The notes beneath the pieces were generated by a model. That model was not told where the DNA came from, did no database searches, and was given only the letters and a program-made list of their open reading frames with translations. Made by a program: the position numbers and the translations under genes. From positions 135,819 through 199,818 of the forward strand of contig CAZADR010000001.1 in assembly GCA_964484005.1 (NCBI GenBank): a stretch of 64,000 nt of DNA. The letters are read 5' to 3'. Source of the DNA: an uncultured Candidatus Saccharibacteria bacterium (GTDB lineage: Bacteria; Patescibacteriota; Minisyncoccia; Phycocordibacterales; UBA9973). Of the stretch, positions 7,386-62,156 are shown one piece after another (the first letter of the stretch is position 1; the number at the start of each line of letters is the position of its first letter).

Positions 7386-10300
7386 ATGTTTGATATTATA
7401 GTAATTGGGTTTATCATTTTTTTAGTAATTAGACAAAGTGGTCGTATTTCCCGAATTGAAAAACTACTTGAAGGAAAGGTTCAAAATAAGACTGTAGAAA
7501 ACAAGGAAGGAGTAGCTTCGGAGCCGCTTGTAGTTGCTACCACACCTCAAACTAGTGCTAGGGAGACATTGGTAGAGCAAAAGATAGAGCCTGTCCCCGA
7601 TATAAAAATTAAATTAGATGAAGAAGCTTCTGGGCGCTTTCTTGGTAAGGTTGGCATTGGCGCTGTTCTTGTAGGCGTGGCTTTCTTTTTGAAATATGCT
7701 TTTGATAATAATTGGGTTGGTCCCACCGGGCGAGTGATGATTGGTATTTTGACTGGAGTCATATTTCTCATAATTGGACAGATATTACGAAAAAAATATC
7801 TTCGTTACTCCGACATGCTCATGGGTGGTGGTATCGCTATTCTTTATTTGTCAGTTTACTCTGCGCAGGCTTTTTATCACCTTATTGACCCGCTTATGGC
7901 CGGTTTTTTCATGTTGATTGTGACTGTGCTTGCTTTTGCTATTAGTATTGCGAATGCTACGATGACTCTCGCTTTTGTGGGAATTATTGGTGGTTTTGCA
8001 ACACCTTTCCTTTCCGGGGTAAAAGAAAATAACATGATGATGCTCTTTGGGTATCTTATGCTTTTGAACGTAGGCGTTCTCGGAGTGTCATTTTTCAAAA
8101 AGTGGCCACAAATCATAGTTGTTGCGTTTATTGGTACAGCGATTAATTTCCTTTCATGGTACTTTTCTTTTTATACGGAAAGTGTACTTGCTTCGACGTT
8201 ATTTTTCTTATTTATTTCTTTTGTTATTTTTCTTGTTGCAAGCATTGCCCGCGTCGTTAACGCTGGCCTAAAAGCAGATGAAGGTGATTATTTTTTACTT
8301 GGCATGGATGCATTTGGATTTGCGGTAATGAGTTATATATTACTTGCGCCCAACCACGATGAGGTGCTTGGTTTTGGGGCTGTGTTTATTGCTTTCATTT
8401 ATATGCTGATTGCTTACACTGCTAATAAGTTTAATCCTTCCGATCGAGCACTCAATATTTTTCTTCCGGGACTTGCGGTGACTTTTCTTTCGATTGCTGT
8501 TCCGCTTCAATTTGATGGTCCATGGATTGCGGTTGCTTGGCTCGTTGAAGCATGCATGCTTTACTTTATCTCTTCCATGATTAGCAACCGAGGTTTTCAG
8601 ATTATGGGTATTGTTGTTTATTGTCTCGGAATTATTGATTTCTTTATATGGTATATATCTCATGGACTTGAGAGAATAACAGATTTTGTCCCTATCTTTA
8701 ATACTACTTTTGCTATCTCTATTGTTGCTGTTGTTGTGGCTTATCTCATCGCGTATATGTATGTGAAATACGGAAGCATTACCGAGGAAATTCGGGATCG
8801 AGGAATTGTTGTGTTTATAATTGTAGCTAATGTTCTCACTATTTTTGCTTTTACTACGCAAGTTATAGAGTATCACGGTGCGAAGTCCGCTGTGTTAAGA
8901 GAACAATACGAATTGACTATTCGTGATGCTAGTTTGTATAACACGGGATACGATTATTCTGATACTCAAAGTAATAATGCAAACAATTTTTATGAGGAAA
9001 ATGAAAGTATTCAAAATCAGTCCAACACCATAGTGTCAATTTTATGGGCTCTCTACGCTGCATTATTGACTGGTATTGGTTTTGCCAAGCGATATGCCGG
9101 CATACGACGCCTCGGTTTAATTTTGTTTGTAGTTACTGGAGTAAAAGTTGTAATGGATGTGTGGAGTCTAGGTCAGCTTTATCGAATCATCTCGTTTATA
9201 GTCTTTGGAATCATTGCACTCATTGCATCATTTGCATACGCGAAATACAAAGATCGCCTGAAGGCTATCATCGTTTTGGTTCTGCTCCTCGTGTCTGGTT
9301 TTTCATTTTCAGTAACTCATGCAAGGTTTAATCTTGAAGCATGGCAGTATCTTCGTACACTTTCCGTGCCGATGACATCTGATTTTGCAAAAATAGTATT
9401 ACCTTTAGATATCTCGCGAACAAGTTCAAACTTTAGTGATATCCGCATTATCGACCAGAACGGAAACGAATCGCCGTATTTAATTACAAGAAATACATCG
9501 GTTAAAGGAGGAGTTGTAACTGCGCAAGTGCTCAACGAGACTACATTAAATGGTAGTACACAATTTATTGTTGATAGCGGGGAAGATGCTGTTGTGCGAA
9601 CACGTATTGCTCTTTCTACTAGTACAAATAATTTTAAACGTCAGGTGGGCATATATTCATCGCACACGATGTTGCCGATAAACAGTCCTCTCTGGGCGCT
9701 CGTAACTGACAAAGGATATATATTTAAATTTACTGATACAGTGACGGGCTTTAGTTCTGGCAAAAGTGAAATTGATTTTAGCGCAAATACTGCGCGATAT
9801 TTTAAAGTGGTGATTGGCGGAGGCGAAGAAGGAGCTGTGGATGTTACAGGGGCGGTGCTTTATGGTGATATAGCACTAATTACTCCTACGTATGTAAAAA
9901 CTGTTCCTGCCACGGTATACAACAATCCATCAAACAGAACTACTGAAGTTACAATTGATCTCGGTGTTTCAGGATATCTTACCCACGCAATCAATTTAAT
10001 TTCTTCCGATCGAAATTACAGTCGAAAAGTTATATTGGAATCATCAAATGACAATGTGACATTTTCGCGTATCGGAGAGGGGTATATTTCAAATATTTCC
10101 ACATCCCTATTTACGGGTTCTTCAAATCGGGTATCGTATCCTGAACAAAAGACACGTTACATTCGAGCTTCTATAGTGAATGATGACAACATGCCAATTA
10201 TGATTAATGGGAATTTGGAAATTGAAGGCCCAGTAGTTTCCGCAATTTTTGAAATGAAACAAGGAGGAACATACACGCTTTACTACGGTAATCCAGCAGC

Positions 10301-10547
10301 AGAATCATCGGTGTACGACATCGGAAGAATATCCTCATATATAGAAGAGAATGCAATTCCAGTTGTTTCCCTCGGGGAAGAGTCATTGAATTCTGCATAT
10401 GTCGCACCCAAAGGGCCCGTTGTTCCGTTTACCGAGTCAAATAAGTGGCTTTTAAATACGCTGTTGGTTCTTGTCGTACTTATACTAGGAGCGGGTATCG
10501 GTATGTATCTCCGGAATTTTAAAAAGACTAATAATGGTTTCGAATAA
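7386..10547 (+). CDS. large polytopic membrane protein (possibly DUF2339-like) fused to a ~400-aa extracytoplasmic domain ending in a TM anchor
   Basis: There are about 20 predicted hydrophobic helices in the first ~630 aa. A hydrophilic Ser/Thr/Asn-rich domain follows, then a final helix LLNTLLVLVVLILGAGIGMYL. The family assignment is from memory only. Confidence 0.6.
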   Translation: MFDIIVIGFIIFLVIRQSGRISRIEKLLEGKVQNKTVENKEGVASEPLVVATTPQTSARETLVEQKIEPVPDIKIKLDEEASGRFLGKVGIGAVLVGVAFFLKYAFDNNWVGPTGRVMIGILTGVIFLIIGQILRKKYLRYSDMLMGGGIAILYLSVYSAQAFYHLIDPLMAGFFMLIVTVLAFAISIANATMTLAFVGIIGGFATPFLSGVKENNMMMLFGYLMLLNVGVLGVSFFKKWPQIIVVAFIGTAINFLSWYFSFYTESVLASTLFFLFISFVIFLVASIARVVNAGLKADEGDYFLLGMDAFGFAVMSYILLAPNHDEVLGFGAVFIAFIYMLIAYTANKFNPSDRALNIFLPGLAVTFLSIAVPLQFDGPWIAVAWLVEACMLYFISSMISNRGFQIMGIVVYCLGIIDFFIWYISHGLERITDFVPIFNTTFAISIVAVVVAYLIAYMYVKYGSITEEIRDRGIVVFIIVANVLTIFAFTTQVIEYHGAKSAVLREQYELTIRDASLYNTGYDYSDTQSNNANNFYEENESIQNQSNTIVSILWALYAALLTGIGFAKRYAGIRRLGLILFVVTGVKVVMDVWSLGQLYRIISFIVFGIIALIASFAYAKYKDRLKAIIVLVLLLVSGFSFSVTHARFNLEAWQYLRTLSVPMTSDFAKIVLPLDISRTSSNFSDIRIIDQNGNESPYLITRNTSVKGGVVTAQVLNETTLNGSTQFIVDSGEDAVVRTRIALSTSTNNFKRQVGIYSSHTMLPINSPLWALVTDKGYIFKFTDTVTGFSSGKSEIDFSANTARYFKVVIGGGEEGAVDVTGAVLYGDIALITPTYVKTVPATVYNNPSNRTTEVTIDLGVSGYLTHAINLISSDRNYSRKVILESSNDNVTFSRIGEGYISNISTSLFTGSSNRVSYPEQKTRYIRASIVNDDNMPIMINGNLEIEGPVVSAIFEMKQGGTYTLYYGNPAAESSVYDIGRISSYIEENAIPVVSLGEESLNSAYVAPKGPVVPFTESNKWLLNTLLVLVVLILGAGIGMYLRNFKKTNNGFE

Positions 10548-56977: not shown

Positions 56978-56979
56978 AA

Positions 56980-57321
56980 TTATATTTTAAAATAATTTTT
57001 TAACACTTTTTTTACTTTTGCAATAATTTCATTATCTAACTCTCCAATTTTTCCGAGAATGACAGATTTATCTAAGGTAGCAATTTTAGCTGTTTTAATA
57101 ACAGATTTTAATTTTAAACCAGTCTTTTTGAAATCTTTATCTTTGGAATCAATTAAAATATCAAATTTATAAAGTTTATTTTTTGCAACAGAAGAAATAA
57201 AGCAAACAGTGACATCTTCACTCCTATCTTCCGTCGCAAGAATAAGGGCTGGACGAACTTTATTGTTTGATAGGTCTGTAAACGGAAAAGGAGTAAGAAC
57301 TATATGTCCGACTTTATGCAT
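56980..57321 (-). CDS. mazF: type II toxin, MazF/PemK family endoribonuclease
   Basis: GHIVLTPFPFTDLSNNKVRPALIL is a PemK signature. The protein is 113 aa. Confidence 0.8.
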   Translation of the reverse strand: MHKVGHIVLTPFPFTDLSNNKVRPALILATEDRSEDVTVCFISSVAKNKLYKFDILIDSKDKDFKKTGLKLKSVIKTAKIATLDKSVILGKIGELDNEIIAKVKKVLKNYFKI

Positions 57322-57568
57322 ATCTATGTTTTATGTCTTTAGTTGAGTAAATTTCGGGCTCATTTTCTAAAAAGTCAAAACTTTTAGAGTAGGTGTTGAT
57401 ATTTGTAATCAAGGAGAGTTTACCGTTCCAAAATGATGGAAAGGGAATAAGTACAACCTCCGGAACATTTCTGCGTCCAATGACGATAGGCTTGCGACTC
57501 GTGGCCACGATATTCACAATATCGCTTATTCTCTCCCTTGCTTCTGTTGTTGAAAGTGTTTTTATCAT
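57314..57568 (-). CDS. type II antitoxin, Phd/YefM family
   Basis: IKTLSTTEARERISDIVNIVATSRKPIVIGRRNVPEVVLIPF. The ATG (MIKTL) at 57568 is preferred over the upstream TTG. It overlaps the toxin gene by 8 nt. Confidence 0.7.
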   Translation of the reverse strand: MIKTLSTTEARERISDIVNIVATSRKPIVIGRRNVPEVVLIPFPSFWNGKLSLITNINTYSKSFDFLENEPEIYSTKDIKHRYA

Positions 57569-57671
57569 AGCAATTATATTGTACAAAATGTACAAATTAA
57601 AAGCAAGGTCCATTCTTAGAATAAGTGTGGATAACCCCCACACCTTTCATTTTATACCTTCAGATCATATA

Positions 57672-57935
57672 ATGGCTGTAATGTATTATGTATATGTTCT
57701 AAAAAGTCTCAAAGATGAAAAATTATATGTGGGTTCGACTAATGACCTGAAGCGAAGACTTTCGGAACACAACAACGGACTTAATCGTTCAACAAAAGCA
57801 AGACGTCCATTTGAACTTCGATATTATGAAGCTTGCACTAATGAAAGTGACGCCCGAACTAGAGAATATAACCTCAAGAAAGATGGAAAAGCACTTGGAC
57901 AACTAAAAAGAAGAATTTTCGAAAGTCTTAAATAA
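57672..57935 (+). CDS. GIY-YIG nuclease-family small protein (YhbQ/UPF0213-like)
   Basis: MYYVYVLKS...LYVGSTNDLKRRLSEHN...YNLK. The ORF-track N-terminal extension from 57393 is rejected because it overlaps the antitoxin gene. Confidence 0.75.
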   Translation: MAVMYYVYVLKSLKDEKLYVGSTNDLKRRLSEHNNGLNRSTKARRPFELRYYEACTNESDARTREYNLKKDGKALGQLKRRIFESLK

Positions 57936-57960
57936 AACGAAAGGTGTTGGGGATAACTTT

Positions 57961-57989
57961 TTCTTGCGGGGGGGGTTATATGTTAAAAT
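57961..57989 (+). promoter_or_regulatory. candidate promoter of the giant surface-protein gene, with a G8 homopolymer in the 17-nt spacer
   Basis: ttcttg (-35-like) at 57961, c-GGGGGGGG-ttatatgt, taaaat (-10) at 57984. The ATG is at 58023. Confidence 0.45.
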
Positions 57990-58022
57990 ATAAAGGCAAA
58001 GCAAGAGGCAAGAAAATAAATT

Positions 58023-61000
58023 ATGTTCAAGAAATTCTTTCTAAAAAAATTACTTATTTCAGGATTTTTTGTTTTCCTGCTTTTTGGTGTTTCTACTGCT
58101 TTTGCACAACAAATATCTATATTAGATTTATTCACTGCTTATAGAAATTATGTAGTCCAAGTTCCGACGCCTGAAAGGGTCGGAATCCCGACTTCAGAGA
58201 ACGTCGGGACTCCTCCCGTGGTAGTCATTGGTAATCAACCAGCTTCTGTCATCTACAGTCAAGGCCCTAGAGGTCCACAAGGAATCCAAGGCCTCACTGG
58301 CCCTACTGGGCCCCGTGGTCCATCTGGAAGTGATAGCTCCGGTGGAATCTCTCAAACTTTTTTTGATAATCAAGTAAATGCTATTCTAAACTCTATTGAA
58401 AATGGTTTATCCAATTTATCTAGTTCCATCTCTGAAAGTATCTCTACTGATTTACTCACAGTTTCAGGCAATACCACCGTCGGAGGCAATCTTACGGTAA
58501 CTGGCAACATCACAGGCAATGTCATCGGTACTATCAATCCTTCCTTTACCCTAGGTTCCATTCCTTTTCAAGGAGCCACTGGACTTGACGAAGACAATGC
58601 TAATTTATTTTGGGATGATACGAACAAGAGGTTGGGAATTGGTACGGCGACGCCGGCGAACCTTCTAGATCTCTATGGGCCAGTTACTGGAAGAGCACAG
58701 ATTCTTTTAAGAAATATAAATCCAAGCAACAGAGCACAGCTTGCTGTGCAGAACGATACAGGAAATAGTTTTATTGCACTTGAGTCTCATGGTAGTACTG
58801 AAGTCGGTACTATCTTTGGTAGCTTACAATTGGCTAATTCTATTTGGTTAAAAGGTCAAGTTGTAGATGTAAATGGTGTCATGGCTTTTGGTACTGCTAA
58901 TGGCATACCACTGGTTTTTGGAACTACTAATTTAGAACGCATGAGAATTACATCTGCCGGCAATGTTGGTATTGGGACGACGACGCCGGGTGGTATTCTT
59001 CATATTTTAAAAACAACTGGTTCTGCTATAATTGATCCCAAAATAACCTTGGATAATTTGTTCGATGGTGCTGGCACTGGTTCATCTTTAGATTTTTATC
59101 ACTATAGTGGTAGCACTCGTACTGCATCGGGTCGGCTGGGTTTCAAACGTTGGGCCTCGGGAGGGAATTTCGGTGAATTTTTCTTGGATATTGGCAGCAA
59201 TGGCACATTCGCTAATGTTGTAACAGCTGATGTAAATGGTAATTTTAATGTTCCCACCCTGAACACATCAAGTGGTGGAGTAAACTCTTCCAAAAATGAT
59301 GCAACAACGGATACCGTAGTAGATTTGTTAACTCTTACAAAAACCACGTCTGGTACGCCCGCCGCGGGACTCGGAAGTGCAATTCTCTTTAAGGGGGAAG
59401 TGAGCAACGGCCTAAGTTCTAATATGGCTCGCATCTCATCGGCGTGGATAAGTACTACTGCAGGCGTACCCAGTTCTTATCTTACATTTAGCACTTCAAA
59501 CTCTGGCACTGTTGCAGAAAAAGTCAGAATCGATAATGCCGGCAACGTCGGGATTGGGACGACGGGGCCAGACACCAAACTTTCTGTCGTAGGGAGTGTC
59601 ACTGTCAGTTCAAATCTTTTAATTGCCCCCACCGCCGCAACGACATTCACTTTAAGTTCTGATCCTATAAGAGTTCCAACAATTCCAGTTGCAGTATTTC
59701 AACCGACTAGTTCATTGACGGAAACTCGTTCAGCTATTCTTGATCTAATGCCTACATCGATAGATGGCAATCGTGCTGATAATCGTTTAGGTACAGGGGA
59801 ATCATGGATTGACTTAGTCGATAGGGATCTTCGCAATTCAGCAGACCCAAGCAGTTGGGCAGTTGGAAGAATGTCTATGTCTGCAGGTTCTGGTGGTCCT
59901 GGAACTAAGGGTGTATTTCAAGTTGGAGGTATTAAGAGTGGTACAGCTATTCAGCCACAACTAACTTTGACTGGAAATCAAATATGGTTTGACCCAGGAA
60001 CTTCTGGAGGATTCATGTGGGATGGGGACTTTTATTGGGGGTCTAGTTCATCTTTGTTGACTTACGGTAGCAGTCTTCTCAAAGCTAATGGAAATATATT
60101 AACCGCAGGTTCCGTCGGCATCGGGACGACGAGTCCGGGAAATCAATTAGATATTACAAATGGTTCAGGGTCTACCCAAATAAATGGCTCAGGTATTACA
60201 CAACTTAGAACAGCGGGAGAATCCATAACTGTTTCTGGTGGTATAAATATTACTTCTGCTGCAGGTATCGCTTTAACTGCACAAACTGGTCCATCACCTA
60301 GAATTAGATTTTTAACTAACTTTGGTGGTGCTGGGATTGAAAGAATGAGAATTGATGAAAACGGCAAAGTCGGGATAGGGACGGCGACGCCAAGAACTTT
60401 ATTAGAACTTGGCGGTGATGGAGCTATTTTAGCAACTGGAACCTTAAGTTTTGGTTGGACAGAACCAAACCTTGGCGCGGGAGTAAGAATGATGTGGTAT
60501 CCAAGAAAAGCGGCGTTTAGAGCTGGAAGACAAACTTTAACAGACTGGGATGATGCAAATATTGGTTATTATTCAACAGCATTTGGAAATACGACAAAAG
60601 CCAGTGGTCAGGGTTCCTTCGTAGTAGGACAAAGCACAATCGCCAGTGGTACTAATTCCACCGCAATGGGAAATACCACAACAGCCAGCGGTAGTGCTTC
60701 CACCGCAATGGGAGATGGCACAATCGCCAGTGGTGCTCAATCCACCGCGATGGGAATTTATACAACAGCCAGTGGTAGCTATTCCACCGCGATGGGAATT
60801 TATACAACAGCCAGTGGTGATATGTCCACCGCAATGGGCTATTTCACAACTGCGGCAAGCTACTTGTCGGTTGCGTTAGGTACATATAATGTCGGCGGAG
60901 GAACAGCCGCAAGCTGGGTAGCCACAGACCCATTATTTGAAATTGGAATAGGGACAGGCGCGGGAGCTAAAGCAAACGCCTTAACTGTATTAAAAAATGG

Positions 61001-62156
61001 AAGTGTCGGAGTTCAGACAGCGACCCCCACCGCCAACCTCCAAGTCGCTCAAGGCACAGCAGGTGCAGGCACAGTTTCAACTCCTGGAAGTTCTACTACT
61101 TTAACTGGTGTAGGAACACAATTTACAAATACATTTAAGGTTGGTGATACACTTACAGTAACAGGAGAAACCAGCAGAACTATTGCCACCATTACCAGTG
61201 ATACAGTCTTGGATGTTACGGTTGCTTTTTCAGCCACTGCTCGTTCAGCAGTAATTTATACGCTAGCAGGCGGAACAAGATTTTCTGTATTGGGGAATGG
61301 GAATGTGGGGATTGGCAGAACAGCTCCTGCTTACGCTCTGGATGTCCTAGCCTCTGGCACAGGAGTCATCGCTCGCTTCAATAGCACCAATGCTACTGGT
61401 TGTACTCTCGCAGATGGAGGAACCATCACTTGTACTTCAGATGAAAGAATGAAAAAAAATATAGAAGATATCACTTATGGTTTAGATACTCTAAGAGGTT
61501 TAAGACCCGTATTATTCAACTGGAAATATGAAGATGATACAACATCTAAAAACCTAGGTTTCATCGCTCAAGAAGTGGAAGCTTTAGTGCCTAAACTAAT
61601 AGCCACTGATGAAAACGGCATGAAGTCTCTAAACACTACTGCCATGGTGCCTATTTTAACAAAAGCGATCCAAGAGATGGACTTACAGATTACTGAAATT
61701 TCTAATCTTGAAAAACCTAATACTTGGAGGGATAGTATTGTGGCTTGGTTTGCAAATGCAGAAAATAGTATCACTCGTATATTTACTGGAGAAGTTTGTC
61801 TCACAGAGGCAGGGCAGGAGACAGTATGTTTAAATCGCACAGAATTACAATCCCTGAAAGCGTTAATTTCCTCTCCTCCTTCCGGAGGAGGTGGCACTAT
61901 GACAACCCCAACCTGTACACTTCCGCAAGTATTGGTAAATAATGTTTGCACCGATCCAGCGCCTGTAGTTCCAACTTGTGTTCTCCCTCAAACTTTAGTA
62001 AATAATGTTTGTACAGACCCGGTAGTAGAACCACCGACTTGTATCGCTCCGCAAACTTTAGTAAACAATGTTTGTACGGATCCGACTCCTCCAGTGCCAG
62101 TTGTAGAGCCAATAGTAGAACCTGCCCCTGCGCCAATTTCTGAACCAGTAATTTAA
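58023..62156 (+). CDS. giant secreted surface protein (1377 aa) with a C-terminal Peptidase_S74 intramolecular-chaperone domain and three kinds of internal repeat
   Basis: The signal peptide is LLFGVSTAFAQQ. A collagen Gly-X-Y run is at nt 58262-58330. There are at least five GIGT(T/A)(T/S)P repeats. An adhesin-head-like (STAMGxxTTASGx)x6 block is present. The S74 motif TSDERMKKNIEDITYGLDTLRGLRPVLFNWK starts near nt 61438. There are three copies of a C-terminal Cys repeat PTC.LPQ.LVNNVCTDP. Confidence 0.8.
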   Translation: MFKKFFLKKLLISGFFVFLLFGVSTAFAQQISILDLFTAYRNYVVQVPTPERVGIPTSENVGTPPVVVIGNQPASVIYSQGPRGPQGIQGLTGPTGPRGPSGSDSSGGISQTFFDNQVNAILNSIENGLSNLSSSISESISTDLLTVSGNTTVGGNLTVTGNITGNVIGTINPSFTLGSIPFQGATGLDEDNANLFWDDTNKRLGIGTATPANLLDLYGPVTGRAQILLRNINPSNRAQLAVQNDTGNSFIALESHGSTEVGTIFGSLQLANSIWLKGQVVDVNGVMAFGTANGIPLVFGTTNLERMRITSAGNVGIGTTTPGGILHILKTTGSAIIDPKITLDNLFDGAGTGSSLDFYHYSGSTRTASGRLGFKRWASGGNFGEFFLDIGSNGTFANVVTADVNGNFNVPTLNTSSGGVNSSKNDATTDTVVDLLTLTKTTSGTPAAGLGSAILFKGEVSNGLSSNMARISSAWISTTAGVPSSYLTFSTSNSGTVAEKVRIDNAGNVGIGTTGPDTKLSVVGSVTVSSNLLIAPTAATTFTLSSDPIRVPTIPVAVFQPTSSLTETRSAILDLMPTSIDGNRADNRLGTGESWIDLVDRDLRNSADPSSWAVGRMSMSAGSGGPGTKGVFQVGGIKSGTAIQPQLTLTGNQIWFDPGTSGGFMWDGDFYWGSSSSLLTYGSSLLKANGNILTAGSVGIGTTSPGNQLDITNGSGSTQINGSGITQLRTAGESITVSGGINITSAAGIALTAQTGPSPRIRFLTNFGGAGIERMRIDENGKVGIGTATPRTLLELGGDGAILATGTLSFGWTEPNLGAGVRMMWYPRKAAFRAGRQTLTDWDDANIGYYSTAFGNTTKASGQGSFVVGQSTIASGTNSTAMGNTTTASGSASTAMGDGTIASGAQSTAMGIYTTASGSYSTAMGIYTTASGDMSTAMGYFTTAASYLSVALGTYNVGGGTAASWVATDPLFEIGIGTGAGAKANALTVLKNGSVGVQTATPTANLQVAQGTAGAGTVSTPGSSTTLTGVGTQFTNTFKVGDTLTVTGETSRTIATITSDTVLDVTVAFSATARSAVIYTLAGGTRFSVLGNGNVGIGRTAPAYALDVLASGTGVIARFNSTNATGCTLADGGTITCTSDERMKKNIEDITYGLDTLRGLRPVLFNWKYEDDTTSKNLGFIAQEVEALVPKLIATDENGMKSLNTTAMVPILTKAIQEMDLQITEISNLEKPNTWRDSIVAWFANAENSITRIFTGEVCLTEAGQETVCLNRTELQSLKALISSPPSGGGGTMTTPTCTLPQVLVNNVCTDPAPVVPTCVLPQTLVNNVCTDPVVEPPTCIAPQTLVNNVCTDPTPPVPVVEPIVEPAPAPISEPVI
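60657..60860 (+). repeat. about six tandem 30-bp repeats (tccaccgcaatggg...acaacagccagtggt...) inside the giant gene
   Basis: The repeated coding units are STAMGNTTTASGSA / STAMGDGTIASGAQ / STAMGIYTTASGSY / STAMGIYTTASGDM / STAMGYFTTAASY. Confidence 0.6.
61908..62087 (+). repeat. three tandem ~57-bp repeats at the 3' end of the giant gene (Cys-containing peptide repeats)
   Basis: ccaacctgtacacttccgcaagtattggtaaataatgtttgcaccgatcca... is repeated with small variations. Confidence 0.6.

Follow-up and report, generated by a model that had tools for sequence, protein, structure and literature searches.

The 64,000-nucleotide stretch of DNA analysed here (the window) comes from an uncultured Candidatus Saccharibacteria bacterium (NCBI GenBank assembly GCA_964484005.1, contig CAZADR010000001.1, positions 135,819 to 199,818 of the forward strand) and contains a complete gene for a large fibre-like protein, called P0001 in this study (positions 58023..62156, + strand; 1377 amino acids plus stop). 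We propose that P0001 is a chromosomally encoded, Sec-exported, homotrimeric and self-processing surface fibre of a Patescibacterium, and thereby the counterpart in the Candidate Phyla Radiation (CPR) of the Bdellovibrio MAT prey-recognition fibres that end in a Peptidase_S74 domain. We put the probability of this reading at roughly 65%. It draws on the domain identities, the catalytic motif, the fold of the S74 core, the export signal, the non-phage gene context, the taxonomy, the distribution of an extension behind the chaperone domain and the insertion in which the gene lies, all of them direct observations. The architecture and the taxonomic distribution together make the protein a good candidate for a role in host attachment.

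A first-pass annotation, made from the sequence alone, had described the gene as a secreted mosaic adhesin or tail-fibre-like protein, and its coordinates and length were exact. Its interpretation, including the call of a prime candidate for host attachment, holds up in the essentials. Identical copies of P0001 were found in five independent metagenome assemblies, which rules out an assembly artefact.

The S74 chaperone domain and the predicted cleavage site

In the S74 family, with members such as the K1F endosialidase, T5 pb1 and MyRF, the domain folds a trimer and then cuts the chain at the serine of its motif. Residues 1139-1235 of P0001 (61437..61727; like all modules of the protein described below, on the + strand) form a Peptidase_S74 intramolecular-chaperone domain according to Pfam, an alignment of 26 diverse homologues (A2), an AlphaFold2 (AF2) model and Foldseek. 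The match to PF13884 spans residues 1139-1192 and scores 55 bits against a cut-off of 22 (E 9.8e-15). The motif SDERMK begins at residue 1139, and S1139, R1142 and K1144 are invariant in alignment A2. The AF2 model of residues 1001-1377 reaches a predicted local distance difference test (pLDDT) score of 89-96 over residues 1140-1230, and the top Foldseek match of this core is the MyRF ICA domain (PDB: 7dc3; probability 1.0, target TM-score 0.56), while the endosialidase chaperone (PDB: 3gw6) is matched weakly. The S74 domain proposed at first pass is thus borne out by Pfam match, catalytic motif and fold, and the profile searches returned matches to fibre families as well.

From these features cleavage would be expected before Ser1139, with Lys1144 as its partner, giving a mature fibre that ends at Thr1138 and a pro-piece of 239 amino acids. 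Self-cleavage at the serine of the SDxxxK motif was demonstrated experimentally for the Bdellovibrio S74 fibre Bd3182 (PMC10769870). Phage-type homologues have 83-134 amino acids from the serine to the C-terminus, compared with the 239 of P0001.

Export signal and N-terminal modules

Inspection of the sequence and its hydropathy identify a Sec-type signal peptide or signal anchor at residues 1-28 (58023..58106), in agreement with the signal peptide called earlier. A basic n-region, MFKKFFLKK, is followed by a hydrophobic core of 19 amino acids and by AFA (residues 26-28) in front of QQ. The AFA/QQ site is compatible with signal peptidase I; the signal may be either a cleaved peptide or a retained anchor.

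The collagen-like run, which had also been noticed at first pass, comprises eight G-X-Y triplets at residues 81-104 (58263..58334; GPRGPQGIQGLTGPTGPRGPSGSD). It gives weak matches to phrog_10972 and PDB 6x3m and no match to the Pfam Collagen family (Pfam: PF01391) at E-values up to 1; the paralogue P0003 has a sub-threshold PF01391 match and the homologues P0016 and P0058 carry the domain. Short G-X-Y segments in surface fibres are also known from Streptococcus Scl and Bacillus BclA, although P0001 has only eight triplets. Next follows a conserved module at residues 105-210 (58335..58652), which ends in ...LFWDDTNKRLGIGTATP and is 58-71% identical to the module at the same position in P0016, P0013, P0005 and P0111. 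A collagen run precedes the equivalent module in P0003, P0005, P0008 and P0016. A search of the whole protein against NCBIfam gave no match.

The relatives P0005, P0014, P0112 and P0245 have no signal peptide but carry in its place one or two cytoplasmic HTH_17-like domains, followed by a lone transmembrane helix. This suggests a topology for the group in which the N-terminus sits at the membrane and the fibre lies outside. It is odd that a giant surface fibre should have a fold of the DNA-binding type at its end in the cytoplasm.

The N-terminus also bears on the idea that P0001 is a released protein. In this view the signal peptide is removed, the Pro- and Cys-rich extension at the C-terminus keeps the precursor in the cell wall, and S74 self-cleavage frees a soluble trimer, which could serve as a decoy, as a lectin that diffuses away or in the manner of a depolymerase. 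The AFA/QQ site fits signal peptidase I, a retention domain of the MAT type is absent, and the Pro-rich end of the extension resembles stretches that span Gram-positive walls. Moreover, the MyRF ICA domain, to which the S74 core is structurally most similar, releases an N-terminal trimer from a membrane-bound C-terminal part. MyRF shares with P0001 a cellular, non-viral use of the domain and a sequence that continues past the chaperone; however, it is a eukaryotic membrane-bound transcription factor in which the ICA is followed by a transmembrane helix and a luminal domain instead of Cys hairpins, and its release logic differs. Evidence against a release of P0001 comes from the close relatives with an N-terminal transmembrane anchor and a cytoplasmic helix-turn-helix domain, which place the N-terminus at the cell. 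Sequence inspection of the C-terminus revealed no sortase or other wall-anchoring signal, and the profile searches detected no enzyme domain. We therefore regard a released protein as unlikely and a fibre that stays on the cell as the better reading.

Shaft, orphan module and head

The shaft begins at residue 211. Residues 211-514 (58653..59564) probably consist of beta-helix-type fibre repeats, as indicated by matches in the PDB and by VGIGTxxPxxxL motifs at residues 315 and 509. In the whole protein the motif (L/V)G(I/V)(G/Q)(T/R)xxPxxxL occurs seven times, at residues 204, 315, 509, 698, 783, 995 and 1095, where at least five NVGIGTTTP-type repeats had been claimed. A PDB sequence search matched residues 297-552 to the structure of the Bdellovibrio MAT fibre Bd2133 (PDB: 8ond; E 1.3e-5), with further matches to the MAT structures 8oml and 8ojn. 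The VGIGTxxPxxxL motif is one residue longer than the published MAT consensus V-G-G/N-pi-x-x-P-x-x-x-L.

Residues 515-705 (59565..60137) form a module that is nearly an orphan and that we consider a candidate specificity determinant on the basis of the homologue searches. It is unmatched among the 120 best homologues of P0001, and its sole homologue among 5.8 billion proteins is P0393, with 66% identity. P0393, from a 3-kb contig of the Joint Genome Institute (JGI), is a stand-alone secreted protein of 308 amino acids that contains the orphan module. AF2 modelling of residues 500-720 with this single homologue gave a mean pLDDT of 34 and is uninformative. The orphan module together with the YadA-like head is most likely the place of specific binding, as far as this can be judged from the sequence.

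A further shaft segment, defined by comparison with homologues and by the motif at residue 783, covers residues 706-848 (60138..60566). Across residues 781-1011 P0001 is 44% identical to the Pseudobdellovibrio fibre P0039, which likewise joins a YadA_head to an S74 domain. Pfam, PDB matches and repeat analysis all identify residues 849-960 (60567..60902) as YadA-head (Hep_Hag) repeats of 14 amino acids. There are eight of these, six of them with STAMG or STAFG, so that the YadA-like head block of the first-pass annotation is present with more repeats than the six it had listed. The YadA_head family (Pfam: PF05658) is matched with 50.4 bits against a cut-off of 25 (E 2.6e-13), and the block matches the solved head of BpaC (PDB: 7o23; E 6e-15) as well as the heads of EibD and CbpF. 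The DNA encoding it is a tandem array with 42/84-nucleotide periods at 60634-60850. With two modules, S74 and YadA_head, above the curated Pfam cut-offs, the architecture is no chance pattern.

The 14-residue head repeats are shared with trimeric autotransporter adhesins such as YadA, BpaC and EibD, so type Vc secretion has to be weighed, in which P0001 would itself be such an adhesin. Beyond the repeats and the similarity to the BpaC, EibD and CbpF heads, the expected parts are missing: a Pfam search at E-values up to 1 found no YadA_anchor beta-barrel and no stalk or neck domain, the C-terminus is an S74 domain, and Patescibacteria are not known to possess an outer membrane. P0001 differs from the autotransporters in having only an N-terminal signal for export and, presumably, S74-driven trimerisation. 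The identity as a trimeric autotransporter is refuted by the absent translocator domain, and we give this explanation practically no weight.

The distal shaft and tip of the predicted mature fibre lie at residues 961-1138 (60903..61436), with motifs at 995 and 1095 and 66-72% identity to internal modules of P0014, P0009 and P0058. A Cys pair, C1127 and C1137, immediately precedes the cleavage site and is invariant in alignment A1. P0001 is a mosaic: the protein that contains the closest relative, and the position of that relative in it, change from one segment to the next. Four regions of P0001 recur in P0003 and P0008, namely the signal peptide, the module behind the collagen run, the S74 region and the 40 residues that lead up to the cleavage site with their Cys pair; the middle does not. 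P0003 (1333 amino acids) is a paralogue encoded at another chromosomal locus in the same sample set (L005 2343-6344 / L006 478-4479). The longest contig that carries it equals that of P0001 in length (218504 bp). Its signal peptide is of the same type, and collagen run, S74, extension and two Cys repeats are present, with a different shaft. Its gene adjoins a tRNA-guanine transglycosylase gene and PD-(D/E)XK/Cas4-like genes.

The extension behind the chaperone domain

The Cys-containing region after the chaperone had been called unusual at first pass. In comparison with phage proteins this is correct; among exported fibres of Patescibacteria, by contrast, the region is a conserved and lineage-typical extension of the S74 domain. 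It has three parts. Homologue alignments, a hidden Markov model (HMM) and the AF2 model define a module at residues 1236-1285 (61728..61877) with the pattern W..NAxNxITRIFTGExCLT...C.N..EL..LK. Three 21-amino acid Cys repeats, PTCxxPQxLVNNVCTDP, follow behind a Pro-rich linker at residues 1296-1358 (61908..62096) according to repeat analysis and AF2, in the copy number given earlier. The last 19 residues (1359-1377; 62097..62153) are a tail rich in Pro, Val and Glu, and Pro-rich tails likewise occur in P0003, P0008, P0005 and P0013.

We searched residues 1236-1356 against 1.84 billion cluster representatives and obtained 205 clusters of two kinds. The first kind has a module of 50 residues with the consensus RDSLVAWLANAENKITRIFTGEICLT...C.N..ELKSLKALL and two invariant Cys. 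As an extension of the S74 domain it occurs in more than 100 protein clusters, and 87 of 95 testable proteins have it behind the S74 core with a median gap of 10 residues. Its presence goes strongly together with a hydrophobic segment at the N-terminus (66 of 80 versus 33 of 121; odds ratio 12.6, p 5e-15). To compare genomes and viruses, loci were searched with an HMM of the extension, as tblastn with so short a query is insensitive. The HMM matched 16 of 80 loci from species genomes (GTDB), mostly labelled as Patescibacteria, CPR or 'bacterium', whereas it matched none of the 80 viral loci and none of the Bdellovibrionota or Micavibrio loci among the 80 from species genomes. In viral contigs the similarity ends at the S74 core.

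Two oddities were seen among the matching loci. L013 (DATDXK010000115.1), a 3-kb contig binned as 'Candidatus Nanoarchaeia archaeon', encodes S74 and the extension with identity, coverage and E-value equal to those of the Parcubacteria locus L010; its archaeal label is most likely a binning error. The Patescibacteria loci L016 and L018 each contain two adjoining extension-bearing open reading frames (ORFs), like tandem fibre genes.

Clusters of the second kind have the 21-residue Cys repeat alone, in tandem arrays of three to eight copies in unrelated secreted proteins. Such arrays (18-21 residues per unit, C..PQ.L....C) were seen in P0247, P0250, P0253, P0279, P0287, P0295, P0324, P0359 and P0367, which are secreted proteins or lipoproteins, and their partner domains are polysaccharide deacetylase, fn3, Big_5, DUF4214 and CarboxypepD_reg. 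The repeat matches no Pfam family and looks like a general extracellular spacer. In P0001 the repeats are more alike in protein (71-76% identity) than in DNA (63-70%), indicating that they are old and under selection and did not arise by recent duplication.

AF2 models the extension module as a beta-hairpin and a helix (pLDDT about 76) and each Cys repeat as a beta-hairpin (pLDDT 81-86). In every unit the two Cys are 10-11 residues apart, and a hairpin-closing disulfide may therefore be possible. Both the extension module and the Cys repeats lie C-terminal to Ser1139, so they would leave with the chaperone and would not belong to the mature fibre. We speculate that the extension fits the chaperone for assembling trimers once the chain has been exported by Sec, as a removable pro-domain stabilised by disulfides. 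The procollagen C-propeptide, a removable Cys-containing trimerisation piece at the C-terminus, follows a comparable logic and has no sequence relationship to it.

Relatives and their distribution

The database search for relatives yielded 1214 proteins, which fall into two groups by export signal. Proteins without an export signal have N-termini typical of phage fibres and end 83-134 amino acids past the serine. Those with a signal peptide or transmembrane anchor continue for 150-330 amino acids past the serine, many of them are from CPR bins, and P0001 belongs to this group.

With a degenerate pattern, C-x-SDxRxK, and one genome per species we found 106 loci, mainly in Patescibacteria and predatory bacteria. 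The Patescibacteria among them are Paceibacteria, Nomurabacteria, Moraniibacteriota, WWE3, Roizmanbacteria, Levyibacteriota, Microgenomates and Saccharibacteria-labelled bins; the predators are Bdellovibrio, Pseudobdellovibrionaceae, Peredibacter, Halobacteriovorax, Bacteriovorax and Micavibrio.

This distribution is relevant to another explanation, namely that P0001 is a surface fibre for something other than hosts, such as abiotic surfaces or a biofilm matrix, cells of its own kind, or a decoy or shield against phages. In other bacteria, heads of the YadA type and collagen-like segments also mediate autoagglutination and adhesion in general, and no host is known for the organism. However, the strong bias towards Patescibacteria and predators that attach to other cells speaks against it, and a mosaic protein with an orphan module, encoded in the strain-variable insertion described below, fits partner-specific recognition better than a general stickiness. 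We judge a fibre unrelated to hosts to be quite improbable and keep to host recognition.

Genomic context and the insertion

The best named relatives of the LepA encoded in the window are 87-91% identical and belong to Candidatus Paceibacterota, Nomurabacteria, Minisyncoccia and the Parcubacteria group, so that the window comes from a Patescibacterium of the Paceibacteria/Parcubacteria type. Upstream of the fibre gene lie genes for tRNA synthetases, MurJ, LepA, FtsA and the division and cell wall (dcw) cluster (MraZ, MraW, a penicillin-binding protein and a Mur ligase), and downstream, past the end of the window, genes for a P-type ATPase, RmuC and an exonuclease. Another large ORF of the window encodes a predicted DUF2339 membrane protein of 1053 amino acids (7386-10547, + strand; E 1.3e-76), which is large for so small a genome.

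The surroundings bear on the question whether P0001 is a phage tail fibre, that is, part of a prophage remnant, a tailocin or a phage-like particle encoded in the chromosome. Like tail fibres and tailspikes (K1F endosialidase, 3GW6; T5 pb1, 4UW8; S16 gp37, 6F45) it has the S74 domain, the catalytic motif and probably beta-helical repeats. P0001 matches 17 PHROG families, mostly tail fibres (phrog_9942 with E 8.5e-28), as well as PDB 6f45; tblastn matches were found in tail fibres of cyanophages, pelagiphages and jumbo phages, and the fibre gene shares its inserted segment with genes for a toxin-antitoxin pair and a GIY-YIG protein. Against this, no capsid, portal, terminase, tail or baseplate genes were found within 58 kb upstream and 10 kb downstream, as the first-pass annotation had reported for the window, and the Pfam-scanned ORFs of the window include no phage structural protein. 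The phage matches stay below 31% identity and cover no more than 18% of P0001. Virion fibres are assembled in the cytoplasm and lack an export signal, and the signal-less homologues have short tails of about 100 amino acids after the serine. The phage proteins end about 90-105 amino acids past the serine and are encoded in virion modules, whereas P0001 has a signal, a long post-serine part and housekeeping neighbours. A prophage or virion fibre is rejected on the export signal, the gene context and the low identity and coverage of the phage matches, and we rate a phage origin of this kind as very improbable compared with a fibre of the cell itself.

The GC content of the gene is 43-44% against about 37%. 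Foreign origin was considered for this reason and rejected: GC3, the GC content of the third codon position, is native (0.30, as in the neighbours and in the range of the genome), and the excess is wholly in codon position 2 (GC2 0.53), because the protein is rich in Gly, Thr, Ala, Ser and Pro. A promoter scan around the gene scored no better than shuffled sequence, and a scan of its 3' side gave no convincing terminator.

By comparison with related genomes the fibre gene is part of a 5.2-kb insertion (56978..62152). Its other genes encode a PemK/MazF toxin of 113 amino acids (56980-57321, - strand), directly after the Mur ligase gene; a Phd/YefM antitoxin of 84 amino acids (57314-57568, - strand), which overlaps the toxin gene by 8 nucleotides and forms a type II pair with it; and a GIY-YIG protein of 85 amino acids (57678-57935, + strand), 88 bp upstream of the fibre gene. 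In related genomes, with Mur ligases 67-80% identical, the gene of a small PGPGW membrane protein follows 8-134 bp past the Mur ligase stop in at least nine cases, whereas here the 5.2 kb separate these two genes. None of 47 related loci whose downstream sequence extends for at least 3 kb has similarity to the fibre. Over the wider interval from Mur ligase to RmuC the cargo differs between genomes. Since the PGPGW gene is next to the Mur ligase gene in the relatives, the fibre gene is accessory cargo of a variable Mur ligase-RmuC region. By eye, no convincing flanking direct repeats were found at the boundaries of the insertion.

Small GIY-YIG homologues (39-64% identity) were also seen 0.2-3.5 kb from fibre genes of other Patescibacteria (L008 6701-6901, L015 7503-7706 and L029 9922-10173). 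Their proximity could be accidental, given how widespread these genes are in CPR genomes, or it could point to a mobile cassette.

Comparison with MAT fibres and a model of assembly

The first-pass annotation had pointed to phage tail fibres and trimeric surface fibres in general. The architecture is of the cellular trimeric-fibre kind, and the closest described analogues are the Bdellovibrio MAT fibres. The MAT (mosaic adhesive trimer) superfamily comprises mosaic, trimeric beta-helical fibres of about 1000 amino acids that carry a signal peptide and are exposed on the surface of the predator (Caulton et al. 2024; PMC10769870). In the same study 13 of the 21 Bdellovibrio MATs end in a self-cleaving S74 domain, all 21 share a beta-rich N-terminal domain of about 130 amino acids directly behind the signal peptide, which presumably holds the fibre on the cell, and the other lineages with MAT-like proteins include Omnitrophica, with Patescibacteria not listed (PMC10769870).

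P0001 resembles the MAT fibres in being encoded by a chromosomal non-phage gene, in its signal peptide, in its mosaic chain of about 1000 amino acids or more and in its SDxxxK S74 end, which makes S74 the C-terminal tip domain. It probably shares their beta-helix shaft repeats with VG..P...L-type loops, both occur as several paralogues per genome, and the ultrasmall bacterium, like Bdellovibrio, probably lives on other cells. The differences concern the two ends and the host. In place of the MAT N-terminal domain P0001 has a short Pro/Val linker, the collagen-like run and a different conserved module; its S74 domain is prolonged at the C-terminus by an extension of about 140 amino acids, which was not found in the Bdellovibrionota loci; and the organism is a Patescibacterium, presumably monoderm. 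The missing N-terminal domain, the collagen-like segment and the lineage-specific chaperone extension set P0001 apart as far as its sequence goes. Strict membership in the MAT superfamily is not accepted, given that the conserved N-terminal domain is missing; with an otherwise MAT-like make-up P0001 is a variant and not a member.

Several points weigh against P0001 as a MAT-like host-recognition fibre. An HMM of the MAT N-terminal domain, built from five N-termini of Bdellovibrionota fibre ORFs together with P0039 and P0004, gave no match in P0001 (E above 10), although it matches P0039, P0041, P0061, P0004, P0119 and P0022. For this HMM the domain was defined by conservation and the description in PMC10769870 and not by the HD100 sequences. 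Cleavage at AFA/QQ would leave the fibre without evident attachment, as the MAT retention domain is absent. The last 40 amino acids before the cleavage site are near-identical in the paralogues P0003 and P0008, so that the extreme tip would not be the variable specificity part, unlike in many phage fibres. In AF2 monomer models the shaft before S74 has a pLDDT below 50, with no usable beta-helix or trimer geometry, and the trimer state, the cleavage, the anchoring, the disulfides, the role of the extension and the host binding are all features that we infer. Moreover, no hosts are known for the lineage, some Parcubacteria perhaps are not episymbionts, and an insertion with a toxin-antitoxin pair and a GIY-YIG gene would also fit mobile-element cargo of another function.

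If the proposed reading is correct, the N-terminal signal would take the chain across the membrane and probably keep the N-terminus at the cell, and the C-terminal S74 domain would bring three chains into register. Folding may then proceed through the collagen-like segment, the beta-helical shaft with its VGIGTxxPxxxL loops, the orphan module of 190 amino acids, the YadA-type head and the distal tip, which would be closed by the Cys1127-Cys1137 pair. The folded S74 domain would cut before Ser1139 by means of a Ser1139/Lys1144 dyad and release the pro-piece, consisting of the chaperone, the two-Cys hairpin and helix, the three Cys hairpins and the Pro-rich tail. The extension would allow the chaperone to do its work beyond the cytoplasm. 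With about 1110 amino acids, the mature fibre would project from the cell and bind a structure of the host surface, probably a glycan or a protein; candidate binding sites are the tip, the YadA-like head and the orphan module. By rough analogy with the 55-nm model of Bd3182 (922 amino acids; PMC10769870), its length would be about 50-60 nm.

Implications for CPR biology

How ultrasmall CPR bacteria find and hold their hosts is largely unexplained, and experimental work points to type IV pili. In cultured Paceibacteria undefined extracellular material has been described at the attachment site (PMC10936435). A full-text literature search combining S74 or endosialidase chaperone with CPR found no description of such fibres in CPR. 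P0001 is a concrete and testable attachment candidate, related to the prey-recognition fibres of Bdellovibrio and with a built-in, presumably self-cleaving assembly domain, and its post-chaperone extension is a defined new sequence module. The concentration of the relatives in Patescibacteria and predators suggests separate recruitments of phage receptor-binding hardware in lifestyles of the cell-on-cell kind.

More tentatively, as a possibility that we hold to be doubtful, Patescibacteria may have turned a phage tail-fibre and S74 cassette into Sec-exported, self-processing host-recognition fibres of their own. A lineage-specific pro-domain extension of disulfide hairpins and a Pro-rich spacer would enable a trimer-assembly device that normally acts in the cytoplasm to function outside the cell, and small insertions, here with a toxin-antitoxin pair and a GIY-YIG gene, would carry the fibre genes and swap host specificity between strains. 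If this is true, such fibres would, beside type IV pili, determine the host range of CPR episymbionts.

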